A stretch of DNA of 28,274 nucleotides from a virus, in the UHGV virus genome UHGV-1752292; one strand, 5' to 3'. Below are positions 2,781 to 28,274 of the stretch, in pieces. The translations under genes and the position numbers were made by a program. How positions within the stretch are numbered: position 1 is the stretch's first letter; every line of letters starts with the position of its first letter. The notes below the pieces were generated by a model. The model ran no database searches. It was given only the letters and a program-made list of their open reading frames with translations, and was not told the DNA's origin.

Positions 2781-4734
2781 TTAATACAGGTGGAATCGTT
2801 GAGCTTTGACGCTGCTCTTCAGTATAGACTTCACCAGTCTCACGGTCAAACACTTCATCCTCATAATGTGGCAAAGAGTCATCATAATGGTCTTCAGCTT
2901 CACCAATACCAAACTGTTGGCGAATATTTTCTGCTGCACCATCAATATCAACACCACATCCAGAAGCTTTGATAAGACGTCCTGTATCTGGATTGTACCA
3001 AGTATGACCAGCAATACCTGTTGATTTACCATGACGACGACACTTAGTTAACTTGATTTTTGTCAAGTTTTTCTTAACAGGGTCTGGGTCAACCTTGTTA
3101 CGCATTAACAGAATGTTGTTCATAGAAATCTGGAAATACGCACCAGAGCCTTTAATATCCTCTTCAGAGATATCTCCACCTTCAGAGTTAGCCTTCTGAC
3201 CACCTGCACTCTTACGAACGTGACAGACGTTCACTTGTGCATACTGGTAGCGTTTGCAACGACGCAATAGCTCAGATAAAACTTCCTCTTCATCCGTATC
3301 TGAACGTGACAGAGCCAACGTAATAGGGTCAAGAATAATAATCTTACAGTCTAAGCTGTTAACAAGATAGTCAACAAACTCCAGCAAGTTATCTTGGTCA
3401 ATTGCCCCTTGATGGTCTACGATGTGGATACGACGACCTTTAGATAGTTCTGCGTGTGCTTCCTTCAATTCATCCCAATCACGTTCGTCATAAGGAATCT
3501 CAGCAATCTGCTTGCTAAGGTGGATTGCACAGAGCATCTCCATCAACTCTTCATAGGTATCCTCTACAGGAATTACACCAATATTGTAATCGGTATCTTT
3601 CCAAGCTGTGTAAATCATTTCACGAGTGTATGCTGATTTACCCACTGAAGATGGTGCTGCCAGAGTTGTAATCTCACCTAGACCATAACCACCATAAGTC
3701 AGCCTGTTCAAATCTCCGAAAGATTCTGGGAAAGGAATCAATGGAATCTGACCACGGTTCTTCATTGCCTCAAAACCATCTGCAAAGTTCTTGATACCAG
3801 CAGGGCAGTAACGAGGTGCATTGTAGATACGCTGCTTAAACCCTTCAAGAACTGTATCTTTCTCTTTATAGAACTTTGTCCACCATTCGTTAAGGTCTTT
3901 TACACCTTCTGGATACTGGAATAAACGAACCTTCTCAATAGGGAGAATGCCAGCAGCCTCTTTAGTGGCTTTAGCACCTGCTTCATCGTTATCAAAGCAC
4001 AAGTAAATCTCATCAAATGATGTGATGTACTGATAGTTGTCTTTGATAGACTTAATGTTTGCACCCGATGGAACAGATACGTGACAGTAATTCTTACGAC
4101 GAGACTTGTCCTTAATCGCAAGAGAAGTCATATAGATTGCTGTCGCACATTCCATCTCACCTTCCCAGATGAAGAGACGGTTACCACCTTCTGGAGCAAT
4201 CCATGAGCCGAACATTGCCAGTTCACCTTTAATGTCTCCAACACCACCAGAAAAGTCTTTTAACTTACCACGTAGGTGCTCTTTTGGGTGGTCTTCTGGG
4301 TAACGGTGACGAACACGGTAGCCAACATGCTCTAGCTTGCCATCTTCATTGCGTTTGTAAGTTGGGTAGAAATGCGCATCAATTTCACCATCACTGTCAA
4401 TATCAACCTTAATACCCAAACGCTCAAGAACTTTTGCAGGAATCTTCCTGTCTTTCAAGTCCATTGCTTCAAGGTTTTCTTTCACATCGTCTAAATCCAT
4501 TCCACGGAAAGTACGGTTTTTATTGTCTGAACCAGTAGAATAAGTGCTCACGATTTGTCCTTTATCAAAATCCCACTCTGGGAAACCTTTGTTACAACTA
4601 AAGCAAGTCATTGAATAAGAATCATCGTCATGATGATAGATTGAACCAGCATCTGATGAACCACAACGTGGACATGCACAATGACCAACAAACTGACCAG
4701 CCTCTTTCAATTTACGACCTTTAGACATTAGCAC
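2743..4734 (-). CDS. Bifunctional DNA primase-helicase (T7 gp4-like)
   Basis: 663 aa; N-terminal Cys4 zinc ribbon (CPRCGSSD…CFSCNKGF) resembling the T7 gp4 primase Zn motif; central acidic TOPRIM-like region; C-terminal DnaB-like helicase with Walker A (APSSVGKSAYT) and Walker B-like IILDPIT. Confidence 0.85.
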   Translation of the reverse strand: MLMSKGRKLKEAGQFVGHCACPRCGSSDAGSIYHHDDDSYSMTCFSCNKGFPEWDFDKGQIVSTYSTGSDNKNRTFRGMDLDDVKENLEAMDLKDRKIPAKVLERLGIKVDIDSDGEIDAHFYPTYKRNEDGKLEHVGYRVRHRYPEDHPKEHLRGKLKDFSGGVGDIKGELAMFGSWIAPEGGNRLFIWEGEMECATAIYMTSLAIKDKSRRKNYCHVSVPSGANIKSIKDNYQYITSFDEIYLCFDNDEAGAKATKEAAGILPIEKVRLFQYPEGVKDLNEWWTKFYKEKDTVLEGFKQRIYNAPRYCPAGIKNFADGFEAMKNRGQIPLIPFPESFGDLNRLTYGGYGLGEITTLAAPSSVGKSAYTREMIYTAWKDTDYNIGVIPVEDTYEELMEMLCAIHLSKQIAEIPYDERDWDELKEAHAELSKGRRIHIVDHQGAIDQDNLLEFVDYLVNSLDCKIIILDPITLALSRSDTDEEEVLSELLRRCKRYQYAQVNVCHVRKSAGGQKANSEGGDISEEDIKGSGAYFQISMNNILLMRNKVDPDPVKKNLTKIKLTKCRRHGKSTGIAGHTWYNPDTGRLIKASGCGVDIDGAAENIRQQFGIGEAEDHYDDSLPHYEDEVFDRETGEVYTEEQRQSSTIPPVLSEDADDCPFETE

Positions 4735-4929: not shown

Positions 4930-5673
4930 TTAAACTTTAATGATGGCTCTTAGCTTGTTCTCAAGGTCTGCAAGAGTACCATTATTATGAATAATGTCAC
5001 GCTCATATTTTGTAGAAATCCCATTTTCTGAAACATGTGATGAAACTTTGTCCACATTGTCTCTTTTTACTTCAATAGTTTGGTGTGCAAATCTACTCAG
5101 CCATTCAGCTTCAGAGTCAAATCTTAAATCACTGATTAAGACAAAACCATATTGATTTCTAAGTGAGCACATTTCATGGAATCTAACCATTCTTTTTTCA
5201 AGGTCTTTAGACCAGAACTTGTCGCCCATTACTTTACGGACAACTTCAGTACCCCAAATCTGTTGAATTTGTCTTGATGAGAATTTATACTTTTTGCTAA
5301 ACCCCAGACGTGTCAATAGAGTCGGTTTAGCAACCTTCTTAAGCTCCATGATTAATCGTCCGGTTAACTCTGACATAAGCTTGAAGTCCATATGGTAACG
5401 TTCATCCCTGAAGGTGAACTCCATAGCTTCCGTAACTTTAAACATCAGTTCATGATATGATAAGTCAAATACCTGCGGAGTCTCTTTAGTTTCACCATAC
5501 AGGTCATTCCAAGTCAGGTCAAATATCTTTGATGCAGACAGTTTAAGGTTGTCTGCAAAGGCCATTACAGCAACATTGTAGCCGTGCTCATCCTCTAAGA
5601 TGTTCTTCACAATAGAACATGAGGTGTCTTTTCCAGAACGTGCCTTTCCAGTAAATGCGATAATATTACTCAT
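4930..5673 (-). CDS. Deoxynucleoside monophosphate kinase (T4 gp1-like)
   Basis: 247 aa; N-terminal P-loop IAFTGKARSGKDT matches the phage dNMP kinase motif (T4 gp1 GVKRSGKDT); GGAG RBS. Confidence 0.65.
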   Translation of the reverse strand: MSNIIAFTGKARSGKDTSCSIVKNILEDEHGYNVAVMAFADNLKLSASKIFDLTWNDLYGETKETPQVFDLSYHELMFKVTEAMEFTFRDERYHMDFKLMSELTGRLIMELKKVAKPTLLTRLGFSKKYKFSSRQIQQIWGTEVVRKVMGDKFWSKDLEKRMVRFHEMCSLRNQYGFVLISDLRFDSEAEWLSRFAHQTIEVKRDNVDKVSSHVSENGISTKYERDIIHNNGTLADLENKLRAIIKV

Positions 5674-12156: not shown

Positions 12157-12371
12157 CTGTAGAAGATAAATTTAAGAACGCAGTTCTTACAGAAGATGGT
12201 GAGCTTGAAACATTCATTCTTCGTGTTGATGGTAAGCTATTCCGGTGTCGTTGTGGGTCAAACTGTTTCCATAAACCAGATAAAAATGACTTAGAGCTTT
12301 ACGCATGTAATGCTTGTTACACTTGGTATCACTCAGAGGTTAAAAATGACAATTCTGTACAAACAAAATAA
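12153..12371 (+). CDS. Hypothetical small zinc-ribbon protein
   Basis: 72 aa with CRC…C and C..C pairs (FRCRCGSNCF…ACNACY). Confidence 0.45.
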   Translation: MTVEDKFKNAVLTEDGELETFILRVDGKLFRCRCGSNCFHKPDKNDLELYACNACYTWYHSEVKNDNSVQTK

Positions 12372-13449
12372 AGATGGCTCTTTTAACGTCTGGTCATGCG
12401 TTGCTGTAGGTGACAAAGTTATTACAACCTACGGTAAAGAAAATGGCAAGATGATGTTTGAAGAGTATACAGCAGAACCTAAAAACATCGGTAAAAAGAA
12501 TGAGCGTAACGCTGAACAGCAAGCTCTCTTTGAAGTTGCTGCTAAGTATAAAAAGCAGGTTGACCGCAAAGGTTATGCTTACACAAAAGAGTCTGCACAG
12601 AATACTGAGAAGGTAGGTGTGCAGCTTGCTCATGATGCTGCAAAGGTTAGTCATGCAAAGTATCTGAAGTTCCCTGCTGATGCTCAACCGAAACTTGATG
12701 GTGTACGTTGTAGGATTTCAAGGAACTTGAGCATTGGCAGTGTATTTACAGCATACTCTCGTGAGAATACTGTTTACAAAATCCCTACTGAACTAATACC
12801 TGACATTATGGCAATGTTAAGGCTCCACAAAGATGTTGATGAGTTTGATGGTGAGATTTATGCTCATGGGTGGGACTTAGAAGATATTGTCTCTATGATT
12901 AAAAATGAAGACAATCCTGACCGACACCTACTCAAGTTTTACTGGTACGATATCTGTGATAGTACTAAGACGTGGCCTGAGCGTAGAGATATCATTGAGA
13001 CTTCACCATTGAATGACTTCAGAGACGGCTGTAAAGTTGTTCCTGTTAAGTCTCGTCGTGTAAATTCTTGGGAAGAGTTTGATGAAGCTCATGATAAGTG
13101 GGTTGAAGCTAAGTTTGAAGGTGCAATGTACCGTTCAATCTCTGAAGACTCCTTCTATGAGTGTTGTCACCGTTCATACTTCTTGATTAAGCACAAGAAG
13201 ATGCACACTGAAGAGTTTAAAGTGACTGGTGTAAAGACTGATAAGCGTGGTCATGGCAAGTTCGTTGTAGAGACTCTTCCTAACGTCTTTGTAGATGTCT
13301 CATGGAAGACTACTCATGAGAAGAAACAGTATCTTGCTGAGCATCCTGAAGAGTTTATCGGGAAACCTCTAACGGTTCAGTTCCAGAAGATGACTCGTAA
13401 GGGTTCTTTACAGTTCCCTGTTGGGCTAGTTATTAGGGATTATGAATAA
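12346..13449 (+). CDS. ATP-dependent DNA ligase
   Basis: Start chosen at ATG 12346 (GAGG 6 nt upstream) rather than the in-frame track start at 12310, which overlaps the upstream ORF; adenylation motif I KLDGVRC. Confidence 0.7.
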   Translation: MTILYKQNKDGSFNVWSCVAVGDKVITTYGKENGKMMFEEYTAEPKNIGKKNERNAEQQALFEVAAKYKKQVDRKGYAYTKESAQNTEKVGVQLAHDAAKVSHAKYLKFPADAQPKLDGVRCRISRNLSIGSVFTAYSRENTVYKIPTELIPDIMAMLRLHKDVDEFDGEIYAHGWDLEDIVSMIKNEDNPDRHLLKFYWYDICDSTKTWPERRDIIETSPLNDFRDGCKVVPVKSRRVNSWEEFDEAHDKWVEAKFEGAMYRSISEDSFYECCHRSYFLIKHKKMHTEEFKVTGVKTDKRGHGKFVVETLPNVFVDVSWKTTHEKKQYLAEHPEEFIGKPLTVQFQKMTRKGSLQFPVGLVIRDYE

Positions 13450-13456
13450 AAAGTTG

Positions 13457-13484
13457 TTGACATAGATAATTTGGTGAGTATACT
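13457..13484 (+). promoter_or_regulatory. Near-consensus sigma70-type promoter
   Basis: TTGACA (13457-13462) - 16 nt - TATACT (13479-13484); flanked by a 9-bp inverted repeat (13472-13480 / 13505-13513) spanning the -10 element and predicted start. Confidence 0.5.
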
Positions 13485-13515
13485 GAGCAGCATAAACCAA
13501 CGGGTACTCACCAGC

Positions 13516-13556
13516 ATCACTTAAGAGTCTTCTAAGAGGGTTTTTAAGTGATGTCT
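13516..13556. repeat. 41-nt palindromic element, copy 1
   Basis: ATCACTTAA - 19 nt - TTAAGTGAT (9-bp perfect arms); spacer contains the direct repeat TAAGAG…TAAGAG. 40/41 identical to copy 2. Confidence 0.7.
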
Positions 13557-13608
13557 GGTAAAGTATGGTTCTGTCCGGTAATGCGATGTATGCTATGGTT
13601 TGGTGTGG
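13554..13608 (+). repeat. Pentanucleotide repeat array 1 (11 units, consensus T-N-N-G-G)
   Basis: tctgg taaag tatgg ttctg tccgg taatg cgatg tatgc tatgg tttgg tgtgg: strict 5-nt register with G enriched at positions 4-5. Confidence 0.65.
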
Positions 13609-13614
13609 GTAGTT

Positions 13615-13649
13615 AGTCTCAGCTACATTAAAATGAGACTTACCTTTTT
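13615..13649 (+). terminator. Unit-1 terminal hairpin with downstream T-run (possible terminator)
   Basis: AGTCTCA - gctacattaaaa - TGAGACT (7-bp stem), then tacc and TTTTT (13645-13649); the 4-nt gap before the T-run makes terminator function uncertain. Confidence 0.35.
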
Positions 13650-13675
13650 AAAAGGTCTTTAAGAGGGTCTTTTAA

Positions 13676-13745
13676 TGAGGTTTGTTATGGTCAGGTATGG
13701 TGTGGTGTTGTAAAGTTTGGTGCGGTCAGGTTAGGCTTGGTATGG
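13676..13745 (+). repeat. Pentanucleotide repeat array 2 (14 units, consensus T-N-N-G-G)
   Basis: tgagg tttgt tatgg tcagg tatgg tgtgg tgttg taaag tttgg tgcgg tcagg ttagg cttgg tatgg; preceded by a degenerate copy of the TAAGAGGG element (13655-13675). Confidence 0.7.
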
Positions 13746-13751
13746 GTAGTT

Positions 13752-13777
13752 AATCGAAACTACATAAAAATTCGATT
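13752..13777 (+). other. Unit-2 terminal hairpin (conserved loop, different stem)
   Basis: AATCGAA - actacataaaaa - TTCGATT; an alternative mutually exclusive hairpin GTAGTT - aatcga - AACTAC (13746-13763) overlaps it. Confidence 0.5.
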
Positions 13778-13779
13778 AC

Positions 13780-13820
13780 ATCACTTAAGAGTCTTCTAAG
13801 AGGATTTTTAAGTGATGTCT
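13780..13820. repeat. 41-nt palindromic element, copy 2
   Basis: ATCACTTAAGAGTCTTCTAAGAGGATTTTTAAGTGATGTCT; one substitution relative to copy 1; 264 bp downstream of copy 1. Confidence 0.7.
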
Positions 13821-13877
13821 AGTCAGGTATTGTCCGGTATGGCAAAGCATGGTTCGGTTCGGCAGGGCTTGGTATGG
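13818..13877 (+). repeat. Pentanucleotide repeat array 3 (12 units, consensus T-N-N-G-G)
   Basis: tctag tcagg tattg tccgg tatgg caaag catgg ttcgg ttcgg caggg cttgg tatgg in 5-nt register. Confidence 0.65.
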
Positions 13878-13883
13878 AAGGAT

Positions 13884-13909
13884 GGCAGTAGCCTTATAAA
13901 AAATCTGCC
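13884..13909 (+). other. Unit-3 terminal hairpin
   Basis: GGCAG - tagccttataaaaaat - CTGCC; A-rich 3' half of the loop as in units 1 and 2. Confidence 0.4.
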
Positions 13910-13912
13910 AAA

Positions 13913-13963
13913 TAAGCTATAAAATCTGTTGACAAGTCAGGTGTTATAGCTTATTTTTATACT
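13913..13963 (+). promoter_or_regulatory. 10-bp inverted repeat enclosing a TTGACA hexamer, followed by T-run and TATACT
   Basis: TAAGCTATAA (13913-13922) / TTATAGCTTA (13944-13953) flank TTGACA (13929-13934); TTTTTAT then TATACT (13958-13963) about 40 nt upstream of the 14002 start. -35/-10 spacing of 23 is non-canonical, so this could be an operator, a terminator-like hairpin or a promoter. Confidence 0.3.
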
Positions 13964-14001
13964 CAACGTAATACAAGATTTAATATAACTTTGAGGTCAT
14001 T

Positions 14002-14385
14002 ATGAAAAAGATTTTATTAGCTGCTGCAATGGTTATGGCAATGAATTTACCAGTCAATGCAACAGAACTTCCAAATGTGGACTTATCAGGTGTTCCAGAA
14101 GATACTTGCCAGATTGTAAAAGGTGTTGCTCTGGCTAATGGTGAGTTGCTTAAACCAATCTCTGAAGAGTCTTTAACAGAGATGACTGATAAGGTAACTG
14201 ACTATCAGTATCGTGTTCTTGCAGAGTATTTCCTGCAATCTGCAAATATTAAAGAGAAGCACCCTGATGATATTGATGCGCAGGCTATGCTTAATCATCG
14301 TATCCAGTTTAAAGAGGATTTGATGCAAAAAGCTATGTATGGTGTTGAGTATTTCTTAGAAAACAGAAGCTGCACAGGTATTTGA
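14002..14385 (+). CDS. Small secreted/periplasmic protein with cleavable signal peptide
   Basis: 127 aa; N-terminus MKKILLAAAMVMAMNLPVNA/TE has the positively charged n-region, hydrophobic core and AxA-type cleavage site of a Sec signal peptide; GAGG RBS. Confidence 0.5.
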   Translation: MKKILLAAAMVMAMNLPVNATELPNVDLSGVPEDTCQIVKGVALANGELLKPISEESLTEMTDKVTDYQYRVLAEYFLQSANIKEKHPDDIDAQAMLNHRIQFKEDLMQKAMYGVEYFLENRSCTGI

Positions 14386-14386
14386 T

Positions 14387-14599
14387 ATGGCTCTTAAAAA
14401 GTTACATCCCAGAAGCGGTTATGGTAAGATAATTGATGATACAGACGGCTTTACAGTCTTTACAGTTATCTGTCAAGATGATTCACAGATTGAAAAGGCT
14501 CTTGATGATTATCTTAACGATGAACGTGAAAAGGTTAGGGCTACAAACATAGATTCATTGATTGACACTTCACGAAAACGGAAGAAGAAAGATGAATGA
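14387..14599 (+). CDS. Hypothetical protein
   Basis: 70-aa ORF starting 1 nt after the preceding stop; charged, Lys-rich C-terminus. Confidence 0.45.
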   Translation: MALKKLHPRSGYGKIIDDTDGFTVFTVICQDDSQIEKALDDYLNDEREKVRATNIDSLIDTSRKRKKKDE

Positions 14600-14891
14600 G
14601 GTTTTTGACCCTTATGCTCCACAAGATGATTGGGAGGCTGACAGAGAGGCTGAAATGGAGAGTTATATTTGTCCAATGGATGTAGACGAAATGAGAGACT
14701 TCGTTGCACATCGTTTTAAGAGAGAGATTAAATCCAGAGGTCTTTCTCAAGAGCAAGTTGCTAAAATTTGTGGTATCTCTCAGGCTCGTGTATCCAACAT
14801 AATCAACCTCACTGGTAATGTCTCTCTTGAGTTTATGTTGGAAGTATGTGAAAAATTTGGTGTTAATTTTAATTTAAGGTTGGCAGATTAA
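14592..14891 (+). CDS. Helix-turn-helix (XRE-like) DNA-binding protein
   Basis: Start chosen at ATG 14592 (MNEVFDP…), overlapping the preceding ORF by 8 nt; LSQEQVAKICGISQARVSNIINLTGNVSLEFMLEVCEKFGV resembles the Cro/CI-type HTH. Confidence 0.5.
   Translation: MNEVFDPYAPQDDWEADREAEMESYICPMDVDEMRDFVAHRFKREIKSRGLSQEQVAKICGISQARVSNIINLTGNVSLEFMLEVCEKFGVNFNLRLAD

Positions 14892-21959: not shown

Positions 21960-28274
<6,315 letters not shown>

Follow-up and report, generated by a model that had tools for sequence, protein, structure and literature searches.

The segment at 13457–13909 of the window, by which we mean the whole 28,274-nt stretch of viral DNA that was analysed, is very probably an array of three vrRNA genes of the type II VIPR system, SUSP1 clade, and the hairpins that close its three units are very probably the 3' tails of those RNAs. 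We assign the three units to the VIPR vrRNAs because their anatomy, the covariation of their tails, the presence of Vipr in relatives and the satellite targets of their guides all match the published description of that system. The pseudoknots proposed for the tails are an instance of a feature already described in 2026, and the residual novelty is modest and confined to three points: that the array is an orphan, that it became one through recombination at an inter-unit hairpin, and the hairpin as such.

VIPR is a phage RNA-guided DNA-silencing system reported in two preprints of 2026 (bioRxiv 10.64898/2026.04.26.720920 and 10.64898/2026.04.26.720927). Its RAMP protein, Vipr, polymerises on a vrRNA of 9–16 YNNGG repeats with one protomer per repeat, the GGY bases being flipped out and the NN bases pairing with DNA such that one base is skipped per repeat. 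In the SUSP1 clade the vrRNA has an invariable 3' tail of ~40 nt, for which a pseudoknot was deduced from compensatory changes in five sequences, and cryo-EM shows the tail pseudoknot capping the 3' end of the SUSP1 vrRNA. Engagement of the target runs 3' to 5' from the tail, and in SUSP1 the bound Vipr complex represses transcription of the target. The SUSP1 vrRNAs are ~100 nt long, co-purify with Vipr and have satellite targets, and the discoverers propose that the system is older than CRISPR (bioRxiv 10.64898/2026.04.26.720920 and 10.64898/2026.04.26.720927, for all of these points).

Genomic context of the array

The window belongs to a Felix O1-like myophage of the genus Felixounavirus, and 260 phage records align with the neighbourhood of the array at 80–99% identity. 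Felix O1-like phages are applied in Salmonella typing and biocontrol. The array sits in a non-coding gap of 552 nt (13450–14001), bounded on its 5' side by a DNA ligase gene (12310–13449, + strand) and on its 3' side by a gene of 127 amino acids that starts at 14002. Identification of the tails gives a putative function to what has been a conspicuous unannotated gap of these phages; the Felix O1 genome paper and the PhageMaP and CRISPRi-ART papers do not mention the region.

The gap consists of a strong promoter followed by three units of ~132 nt. The promoter is of the sigma-70 type (13457–13484, + strand), with TTGACA and TATACT separated by a 16-nt spacer and 11 of 12 positions matching in a consensus scan, and transcription would start near 13491. 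A leader with this promoter lies 5' of the first unit in all of the relatives, and the promoter probably drives transcription of the whole three-unit array. A search of the region against Rfam 15 gave no gathering-level matches, and only two chance eukaryotic matches at E values up to 1, while ARAGORN gave no tRNA or tmRNA match. Nor did a scan of 12800–14600 find an intrinsic terminator, the tail stems being A+T-rich with loops of 12–16 nt and not having the G+C-rich stem, 3–8-nt loop and directly following U-run by which such terminators are recognised.

Unit anatomy and guide tracts

Each unit begins with a G·U-rich 5' hairpin, continues with 12 or 13 GGY/NN pentamers and ends in a tail of ~33 nt. 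The pentamer tracts span 60–65 nt and repeat strictly every 5 nt; G-Y, mostly as GGT, is the only part that is kept, and the NN dinucleotides between are hypervariable. All three lie on the + strand. The tract of unit 1 (U1, 13548–13607) has 12 pentamers with NN in the order GA CT AA AT TC CC AA GA AT AT TT GT; that of U2 (13680–13744) has 13, with TT AT CA AT GT GT AA TT GC CA TA TT AT; and that of U3 (13812–13876) also has 13, with GA CT CA AT CC AT AA AT TC TC AG TT AT. The repeat numbers of 12, 13 and 13, all in phase, lie within the 9–16 tandem YNNGG repeats of described vrRNAs. The 5-nt period holds at 11–12 of 12 positions, as against a maximum of 6–8 in shuffled sequence, and in U3 all 13 of the 13 G-Y positions fit it. 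We found no other GGY/NN tract on either strand of the window, the period being confined to the array and to its + strand.

Among 30 related loci we found 94 homologous units, in which the tracts vary from 8 to 20 pentamers and are whole and in phase without exception. As in described vrRNAs, these homologues are hypervariable in NN and in the number of repeats and conserved in the GGY bases and flanks, the flanks falling into a few discrete types. Across 79 distinct tracts, conservation is 0.98 at G2 and 1.0 at Y3, both figures being inflated by the use of these two bases as the detection criterion for tracts, and 0.73–0.78 at G1; all 16 NN dinucleotides occur. Local 10-nt duplications are seen in the tracts of relatives, and these indicate that the tracts lengthen and shorten through slippage. 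From the start of the tract to the end of the tail, the predicted RNAs are 93–98 nt long. Degenerate arrays of the same kind were found in many unrelated phage contigs by a pattern scan of IMG/VR with seven or more GGTNN followed by GGT.

Predicted pseudoknots at the 3' ends of the units

The preliminary description of this DNA had placed a stem-loop at the end of each unit, and all three are present at those positions on the + strand. In the tail of U1 (13608–13640, type i), AGTCTCA (13615–13621) pairs with TGAGACT (13634–13640) across the hairpin loop GCTACATTAAAA; in that of U2 (13745–13777, type ii), AATCGAA (13752–13758) pairs with TTCGATT (13771–13777) across ACTACATAAAAA; and in that of U3 (13877–13909, type iv), GGCAG (13884–13888) pairs with CTGCC (13905–13909) across TAGCCTTATAAAAAAT. 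We refer to these helices as stem 2. A further helix, stem 1, is formed by GTAGT (13609–13613) with GCTAC (13622–13626) in U1 and by GTAGT (13746–13750) with ACTAC (13759–13763) in U2. This helix had been noticed previously in both units and is indeed there, but it had been thought to exclude the main hairpin, whereas the two helices share no nucleotides and both covary. It had also been attributed to the first two units only, overlooking its equivalent in U3, where AAGG (13878–13881) pairs with CCTT (13892–13895).

The strands follow each other in the order S1a-L1-S2a-(L2)-S1b-L3-S2b, and because S1a-S2a-S1b-S2b is an interleaved order and both helices covary, we predict that each tail is an H-type pseudoknot of two interleaved helices with feasible loops. 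Types i and ii combine a 5-bp stem 1 and a 7-bp stem 2 with a loop 1 of a single nucleotide and an A-rich loop 3 of 7 nt. Loop 1 of U1 is position 13614, and loop 3 is ATTAAAA (13627–13633) in U1, ATAAAAA (13764–13770) in U2 and ATAAAAAAT (13896–13904) in U3. The proposal that the shared A-rich hairpin loop is a free recognition site for a protein or RNA fares badly under this structure, in which the 5' half of that loop supplies the 3' strand of stem 1 and the A-rich rest forms loop 3.

A tail element lies 3' of all 94 of the 94 units in the 30 related loci, and the tails sort into four discrete sequence types: type i, GTAGT-T-AGTCTCA-GCTAC-ATTAAAA-TGAGACT; type ii, GTAGT-T-AATCGRA-RCTAC-ATWAAAA-TYCGATT; type iii, GTGGA-T-GGTAG-TA-GCCAC-GTTAAAAAT-CTACC; and type iv, AAGGA-T-GGCAG-TA-GCCTT-ATAAAAAAT-CTGCC. 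The partners of stem 1 change together between types (GTAG/CTAC, GTGG/CCAC and AAGG/CCTT). Variation is also seen within types, one stem-2 pair of type ii being G-C, G·U or A-U, and stem 1 of type iv having a G·U variant, CTTT.

An alignment of homologous loci had been suggested as a check on covariation, and the alignment that we built supports both stems. Over 17 distinct tails, 95.3% of cells are paired compared with 74.1% in shuffles, and 10 of the 12 pairs vary on both sides, although the alignment was built by hand around the proposed structure and the 17 rows represent only four related types, which reduces the number of independent compensatory events to a few. Pairing is 90.6% in helix 1 and 99.0% in helix 2, with compensatory changes in each, and falls to 29–54% when the 3' partner is slid along the alignment. 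The earlier reading that stems are kept by compensatory change, and that selection thus acts on RNA structure, is borne out by this double-sided variation. The published pseudoknot is now backed by 94 units from 30 loci, as against the five sequences of the discovery paper.

A lone hairpin in one of these tails is not beyond chance, because the window contains 31 perfect 7-bp hairpins with loops of 8–16 nt where mononucleotide shuffles contain 9–35, and because the isolated tails fold weakly (-5.2 to -7.8 kcal/mol, z -1.1 to -2.5); the significance of the tails lies in their position and conservation. Folding with nested programs, another suggested check, returned the main stem for U1 and U3, but the minimum-energy fold of U2 is stem 1 and not stem 2.

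The tail types have fixed places in the arrays. In the relatives, a type B inter-unit hairpin comes after type i and a type A hairpin after type ii, whereas type iii always precedes the protein gene and type iv is always last in the array, in all relatives including SUSP1. The four vrRNAs of SUSP1 (locus L017) have tails of types iii, i, i and iv, such that its vrRNAs 2 and 3 are of the type of U1. The pseudoknot seen by cryo-EM is that of SUSP1 vrRNA1, which has a tail of type iii, a type absent from the window. The preliminary description had left the hairpins unconnected to the GGY/NN tract that lies directly 5' of each.

Hairpins between the units

The G·U-rich hairpin at the 5' end of each unit is also on the + strand. 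That of U1 (13515–13553, type A) has 17–18 bp, several of them G·U, and extends with its 3' arm into the first pentamer; that of U2 (13642–13681, type B) folds at -12.8 kcal/mol and contains a crossover site discussed below; and that of U3 (13779–13817, type A) folds at -21.1 kcal/mol (z -7.3). As + strand RNA, the U1 hairpin has a folding energy of -17.5 kcal/mol (z -6.3) as opposed to -8.6 for the - strand. In 34 distinct copies, 93.8% of cells are paired and three wobble pairs are invariant; six pairs differ at both partners when types A and B are compared, and the loops are free in sequence and length. The pattern of pairing identifies the inter-unit hairpin as a conserved RNA structure, and we assign it to the + strand because of the G·U pairs and the large asymmetry in folding energy.

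The hairpin is most likely removed from the mature vrRNA, because the 93–98 nt that are left without it fit the ~100 nt of the SUSP1 vrRNAs. We infer that it is a processing signal that releases the individual vrRNAs, in which case the transcript would be cut at or near the G·U-rich hairpins to give RNAs of 93–98 nt. We found no mention of the inter-unit hairpin in either preprint (bioRxiv 10.64898/2026.04.26.720920 and.720927).

Vipr genes of related phages

Directly 3' of arrays of the GGTNN type, at least 15 unrelated contigs carry genes that have an N-terminal motif in common, and all of the members of this array-linked family that were tested belong to phrog_4652; Pfam holds no family for Vipr or for the tested phrog_4652 members. 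Felixounavirus relatives carry a phrog_4652 gene of 195–200 amino acids between two arrays. The family profile matches PDB 36pp_D, 'SUSP1 Vipr protein', at E = 1.7e-79, the protein of a Felixounavirus relative is 97% identical to it (E = 1e-127), and an AlphaFold model of the relatives' Vipr has a pLDDT of 96. With such a protein, one Vipr protomer would occupy each GGY/NN repeat of the window RNAs, with GGY flipped out and NN exposed for gapped pairing with DNA. Neither vipr nor vap lies beside the array in the window itself; the missing vipr affects the completeness of the VIPR system at this locus and not the identity of the RNAs.

Predicted targets in a satellite island

The published rule, with one skipped nucleotide per repeat, was applied to the three guides of the window. 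The U1 pattern, with 22 fixed bases, has one exact match in IMG/VR, at 353–384 of contig L151, where the chance expectation is ~0.01 on a rough estimate that takes IMG/VR as ~1e11 bases. Including the upstream GA, 24 of 24 bases match at 350–384 of L151, in frame within an open reading frame of 236 amino acids, and every skipped base falls at codon position 3. The gene is also present in an E. coli island of ~11 kb, found for example in strain XJ55, that carries a serine recombinase, a tape-measure gene and a baseplate gene and occupies three different integration sites in the genomes examined; against the same gene in four E. coli satellite variants, U1 matches at 20–23 of 24 bases. U2 matches a neighbouring gene (L152, 12274–12311, - strand) at 23 of 26 bases, including an unbroken run of 10 exact NN, and the best target of U3, in another island variant (L157, 6009–6046, - strand), matches at 22 of 26. 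Shuffled guides reach at most 16–19 in the same scoring.

Exact pattern scans of IMG/VR with U2 and U3 gave no matches, and neither did the U3 pattern in exact form in GTDB genomes or U2 and U3 with up to three mismatches in L151. There are no self-targets within the window, the best scores there, 16–18 of 24–26, being at chance level. Among the vrRNAs of other Felix-like phages, many match the island with three or fewer mismatches, where random guides have 4–12. As scored here, the three guides match one family of E. coli satellite phages, and the gapped matches fall in a competing mobile element and, for U1, leave the skipped bases at wobble positions, as described for vrRNAs. The product of the island's baseplate gene is ~86% identical in protein sequence to that of the window open reading frame at 26951–27748, and we infer that the guides are aimed at a satellite phage whose tape-measure and baseplate genes are common to Felix-like phages. 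A bound complex would repress transcription of its target. One island variant has a vrRNA of its own, with a further distinct stem-2 sequence; a satellite tail in L157 has GTCG/CGAC as stem 2.

Alternative explanations for the array and its tails

Taken as plain stem-loops without a pseudoknot, the tails might protect the 3' end, signal processing or act as weak terminators. The main stem that nested folding gives in U1 and U3 would accord with this, as would a T-run located 4 nt 3' of the type i stem, but covariation extends to stem 1, its G·U variant CTTT included, the minimum-energy fold of U2 prefers stem 1 over stem 2, the scan found no intrinsic terminator, and the cryo-EM structure of a SUSP1 vrRNA resolves a 3' pseudoknot; we consider plain stem-loops very improbable. 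A structural switch between two mutually exclusive helices is what nested-only folding programs would suggest, since they are forced to pick one helix, but it is scarcely credible for helices that use disjoint nucleotides and whose loops suit an H-type pseudoknot, with 1 nt over a deep groove of 7 bp and 7 nt over a shallow groove of 5 bp, and the structure has been published as a pseudoknot. The likelihood that the array acts as DNA, whether as an R-loop origin, a cluster of primase sites, G-quadruplexes or an antisense rut site, is next to negligible. Its non-template strand is G-rich and C-poor and lies behind a near-consensus promoter, and the pentamers resemble T7 primase sites; however, the G·U pairs are conserved and folding differs between the strands, both of which indicate RNA, and a DNA element fails to explain GGY with free NN, the link to Vipr across unrelated phages, and the gapped, in-frame targets. 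These same three properties led us to reject, besides two-tier G-quadruplexes, a primase cluster, an R-loop origin and an antisense rut site, a sponge for tRNA CCA ends, ToxI-like repeats of a type III toxin-antitoxin system, and binding sites for a TRAP-like ring protein of the host. The vrRNA array with pseudoknot tails is the reading that we retain.

Loss of vipr and vap

A tblastn search for vipr and vap found neither in the 28-kb window, the other ~58 kb of the genome lying outside it. A close relative, L013, carries vipr and vap between two arrays. Window positions 13440–13679 match L013 3628–3867 at 238 of 240 bases, and window positions 13680–14010 are identical to L013 5144–5474 (331 of 331), such that the window switches from array A to array B of L013 inside the type B hairpin. 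The stretch of L013 that is missing from the window is 1,276 bp long and contains a second vrRNA with a type iii tail, vipr, vap and a terminator. The comparison shows that vipr and vap went with the deletion of 1,276 bp from one type B hairpin to another, which leaves the guides without an adjacent protein partner, and the near-identity of the flanks to L013 points to a very recent event. More generally, recombination between array repeats is a frequent cause of loss of the vipr-vap cassette, and the guides then remain without the protein. Neither preprint was found to mention this orphan, vipr-less state (bioRxiv 10.64898/2026.04.26.720920 and.720927).

It is close to an even proposition that the array is a decaying relic of the deletion, without function in this phage, that survives only because the event is so recent. 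The close match of both flanks to a vipr+ relative accords with this, as does the finding that Vipr is encoded neither in the satellite loci nor in the window. However, vipr-less arrays are common, being found in 9 of the 27 related array-bearing loci, and in the phage collection there are 231 array-positive records compared with 118 that have Vipr at 90% identity or more. The complete genome of EC6 (86,231 bp) keeps one intact unit with vipr and vap absent genome-wide. The vipr-less loci differ in architecture, with at least three kinds (one, two or three units) and NN strings that are mostly unique; GGY is as intact in them as in vipr+ phages (G1 conservation of 0.73 and 0.78 respectively); and some vipr-less guides, those of L014 and L027, still match the satellite with 2–3 mismatches. 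The fuller proposition, that orphan arrays are maintained and not leftovers in the roughly one-third to one-half of Felix-like phages that have them, EC6 included, and that the inter-unit hairpin is a processing signal, we regard as unlikely. If orphan arrays were maintained, their guides might be loaded in trans by the Vipr of a co-infecting vipr+ relative, they might titrate a rival's Vipr, or they might serve as homology arms for loss and regain of vipr-vap at the inter-unit hairpins. The orphan guides may be inert, used in trans, or decoys.

Comparison with other systems

VIPR is an example of phage-borne RNA-guided DNA recognition with a non-contiguous code. The window array resembles the VIPR type II SUSP1 clade in its 12–13 GGY/NN pentamers, its pseudoknot tails (~33 nt here, in a family of ~33–40 nt) and its layout, its tail types being those of SUSP1 vrRNAs 2–4, and in having the same kind of satellite target with a 1-nt skip and relatives whose Vipr is 97% identical. 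It differs in being an orphan from which vipr and vap are deleted, and in having no tail of the type seen by cryo-EM, type iii, whose place is always just 5' of vipr.

As with the crRNA handle of class 1 (Cas7/RAMP) CRISPR systems, a conserved structured element caps the variable guide, along which RAMP protomers assemble with a fixed period, and the array lies behind a leader promoter. The vrRNA period, however, is 5 nt, with three bases flipped and two pairing, where that of CRISPR is 6 nt with one flipped; the vrRNA guide is non-contiguous and its cap is a pseudoknot; and the vrRNA array is without identical direct repeats, a Cas6 hairpin or acquisition genes. The RNA anti-CRISPRs (Racr), which are solitary CRISPR repeats borne by phages, are similar in being guide-like RNAs in a phage without the cognate effector, although a pure decoy would have no need of the good satellite matches that the orphan guides retain.

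The frameshift pseudoknots of luteoviruses are H-type structures with short interleaved stems, a loop 1 of 1–2 nt and an A-rich loop 3 of 7–9 nt, and the A-rich loop 3 of H-type pseudoknots can occupy the minor groove of stem 1. The window tails share this architecture as a structural analogy, but the vrRNA tail is non-coding, has no slippery site and caps a ribonucleoprotein filament. The (G/U)AG repeats bound by TRAP in Bacillus trp leaders likewise have conserved triplets, separated by 2-nt spacers, that encircle an RNA-binding protein oligomer, an analogy that points to a protein taking up 5 nt per subunit. TRAP differs from the vrRNA system in its triplet, its protein fold and its function, which is attenuation.

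Loss of the vipr-vap cassette

In L013, a vipr-containing relative nearly identical to the window in its flanks, near-identical type B hairpins lie on both sides of the cassette formed by vipr, which encodes the RAMP protein that uses the vrRNA guides, and its companion gene vap (3833–3867 and 5107–5143), and comparison with these hairpins places the deletion junction of the window within its own type B hairpin at 13642–13681. Among the relatives that lack vipr, the units are arranged in at least three distinct ways, a diversity that suggests repeated and independent losses of the cassette. Phage EC6 (NC_027369.1; loci L153 and L154) carries an intact vrRNA unit at about 44,800–44,850 in the record, with ten of ten GGY repeats and a tail of type iv, the array-end form; neither vipr nor vap is found anywhere in the complete EC6 genome, and this single unit is an orphan guide at the genome level.

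Hairpin and operator-like elements in and downstream of the array

Some type A inter-unit hairpins contain a loop insertion of about 24 nt (TTTAAATTATATTCGATAGAGTATCTCATAGGG) and retain the outer stem, as seen near 5240–5280 in the relatives L009, L010, and L026, and near 5385–5425 in L016. Downstream of the array in the window, an inverted repeat at 13910–13956 has 19-nt arms (AAATAAGCTATAAAATCTG and CAGGTGTTATAGCTTATTT) that are 89% complementary and separated by a 9-nt gap, and it is kept in all relatives, 3' of the last (type iv) tail. The repeat encloses the -35 motif TTGACA (13929–13934) of the promoter of the downstream 127-residue signal-peptide gene, and it looks like an operator.

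The satellite island matched by the guides

The satellite gene targeted by the first unit (U1) encodes a 236-residue product (14046–14756 in satellite locus L152) and is also present in L156 and L157. Its RefSeq annotation, which looks doubtful, is 'transposase' in several genomes; in one other it reads 'hypothetical protein'. The L157 variant of the island has a vrRNA of its own, with 13 repeats on the reverse strand (reverse complement 13078–13142), and the tail, GGTGGAT-TGTCG-TAG-CCAC-GTTAAAAAT-CGAC, represents another stem-2 variant of the pseudoknot. A search of satellite loci L151 and L152 found no vipr. The baseplate-protein ORF of the window (26951–27748, minus strand) shares about 86% protein identity with the baseplate gene of the vrRNA-targeted E. 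coli island.

Related arrays in other phages

Many degenerate (GGTNN)n arrays are present in unrelated phage contigs (L042–L045, which are one 189 kb IMG/VR contig, and L048, L050, L061, L081, L102, and L114), and these probably represent other VIPR types. Some of the arrays follow one another head to tail with no spacer, others have a different conserved hairpin between them, and others lie 5' of glycosyltransferase or epimerase genes, with terminator-like hairpins after the arrays. In L055, L057, L085, L088, L090, L092, and L109, degenerate GGTNN arrays are directly flanked by tRNA-like sequences marked by the TΨC-arm motifs GGTTCGATTCC and GTTCGACTCC, and this placement between tRNA-like sequences suggests that tRNA-processing enzymes may free the vrRNAs in these phages. 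The phage-collection record GU169904.1 (Staphylococcus phage SA1, 147 kb) contains a Felix-like ligase region, an array, and a 99% identical Vipr, and is probably chimeric or contaminated.
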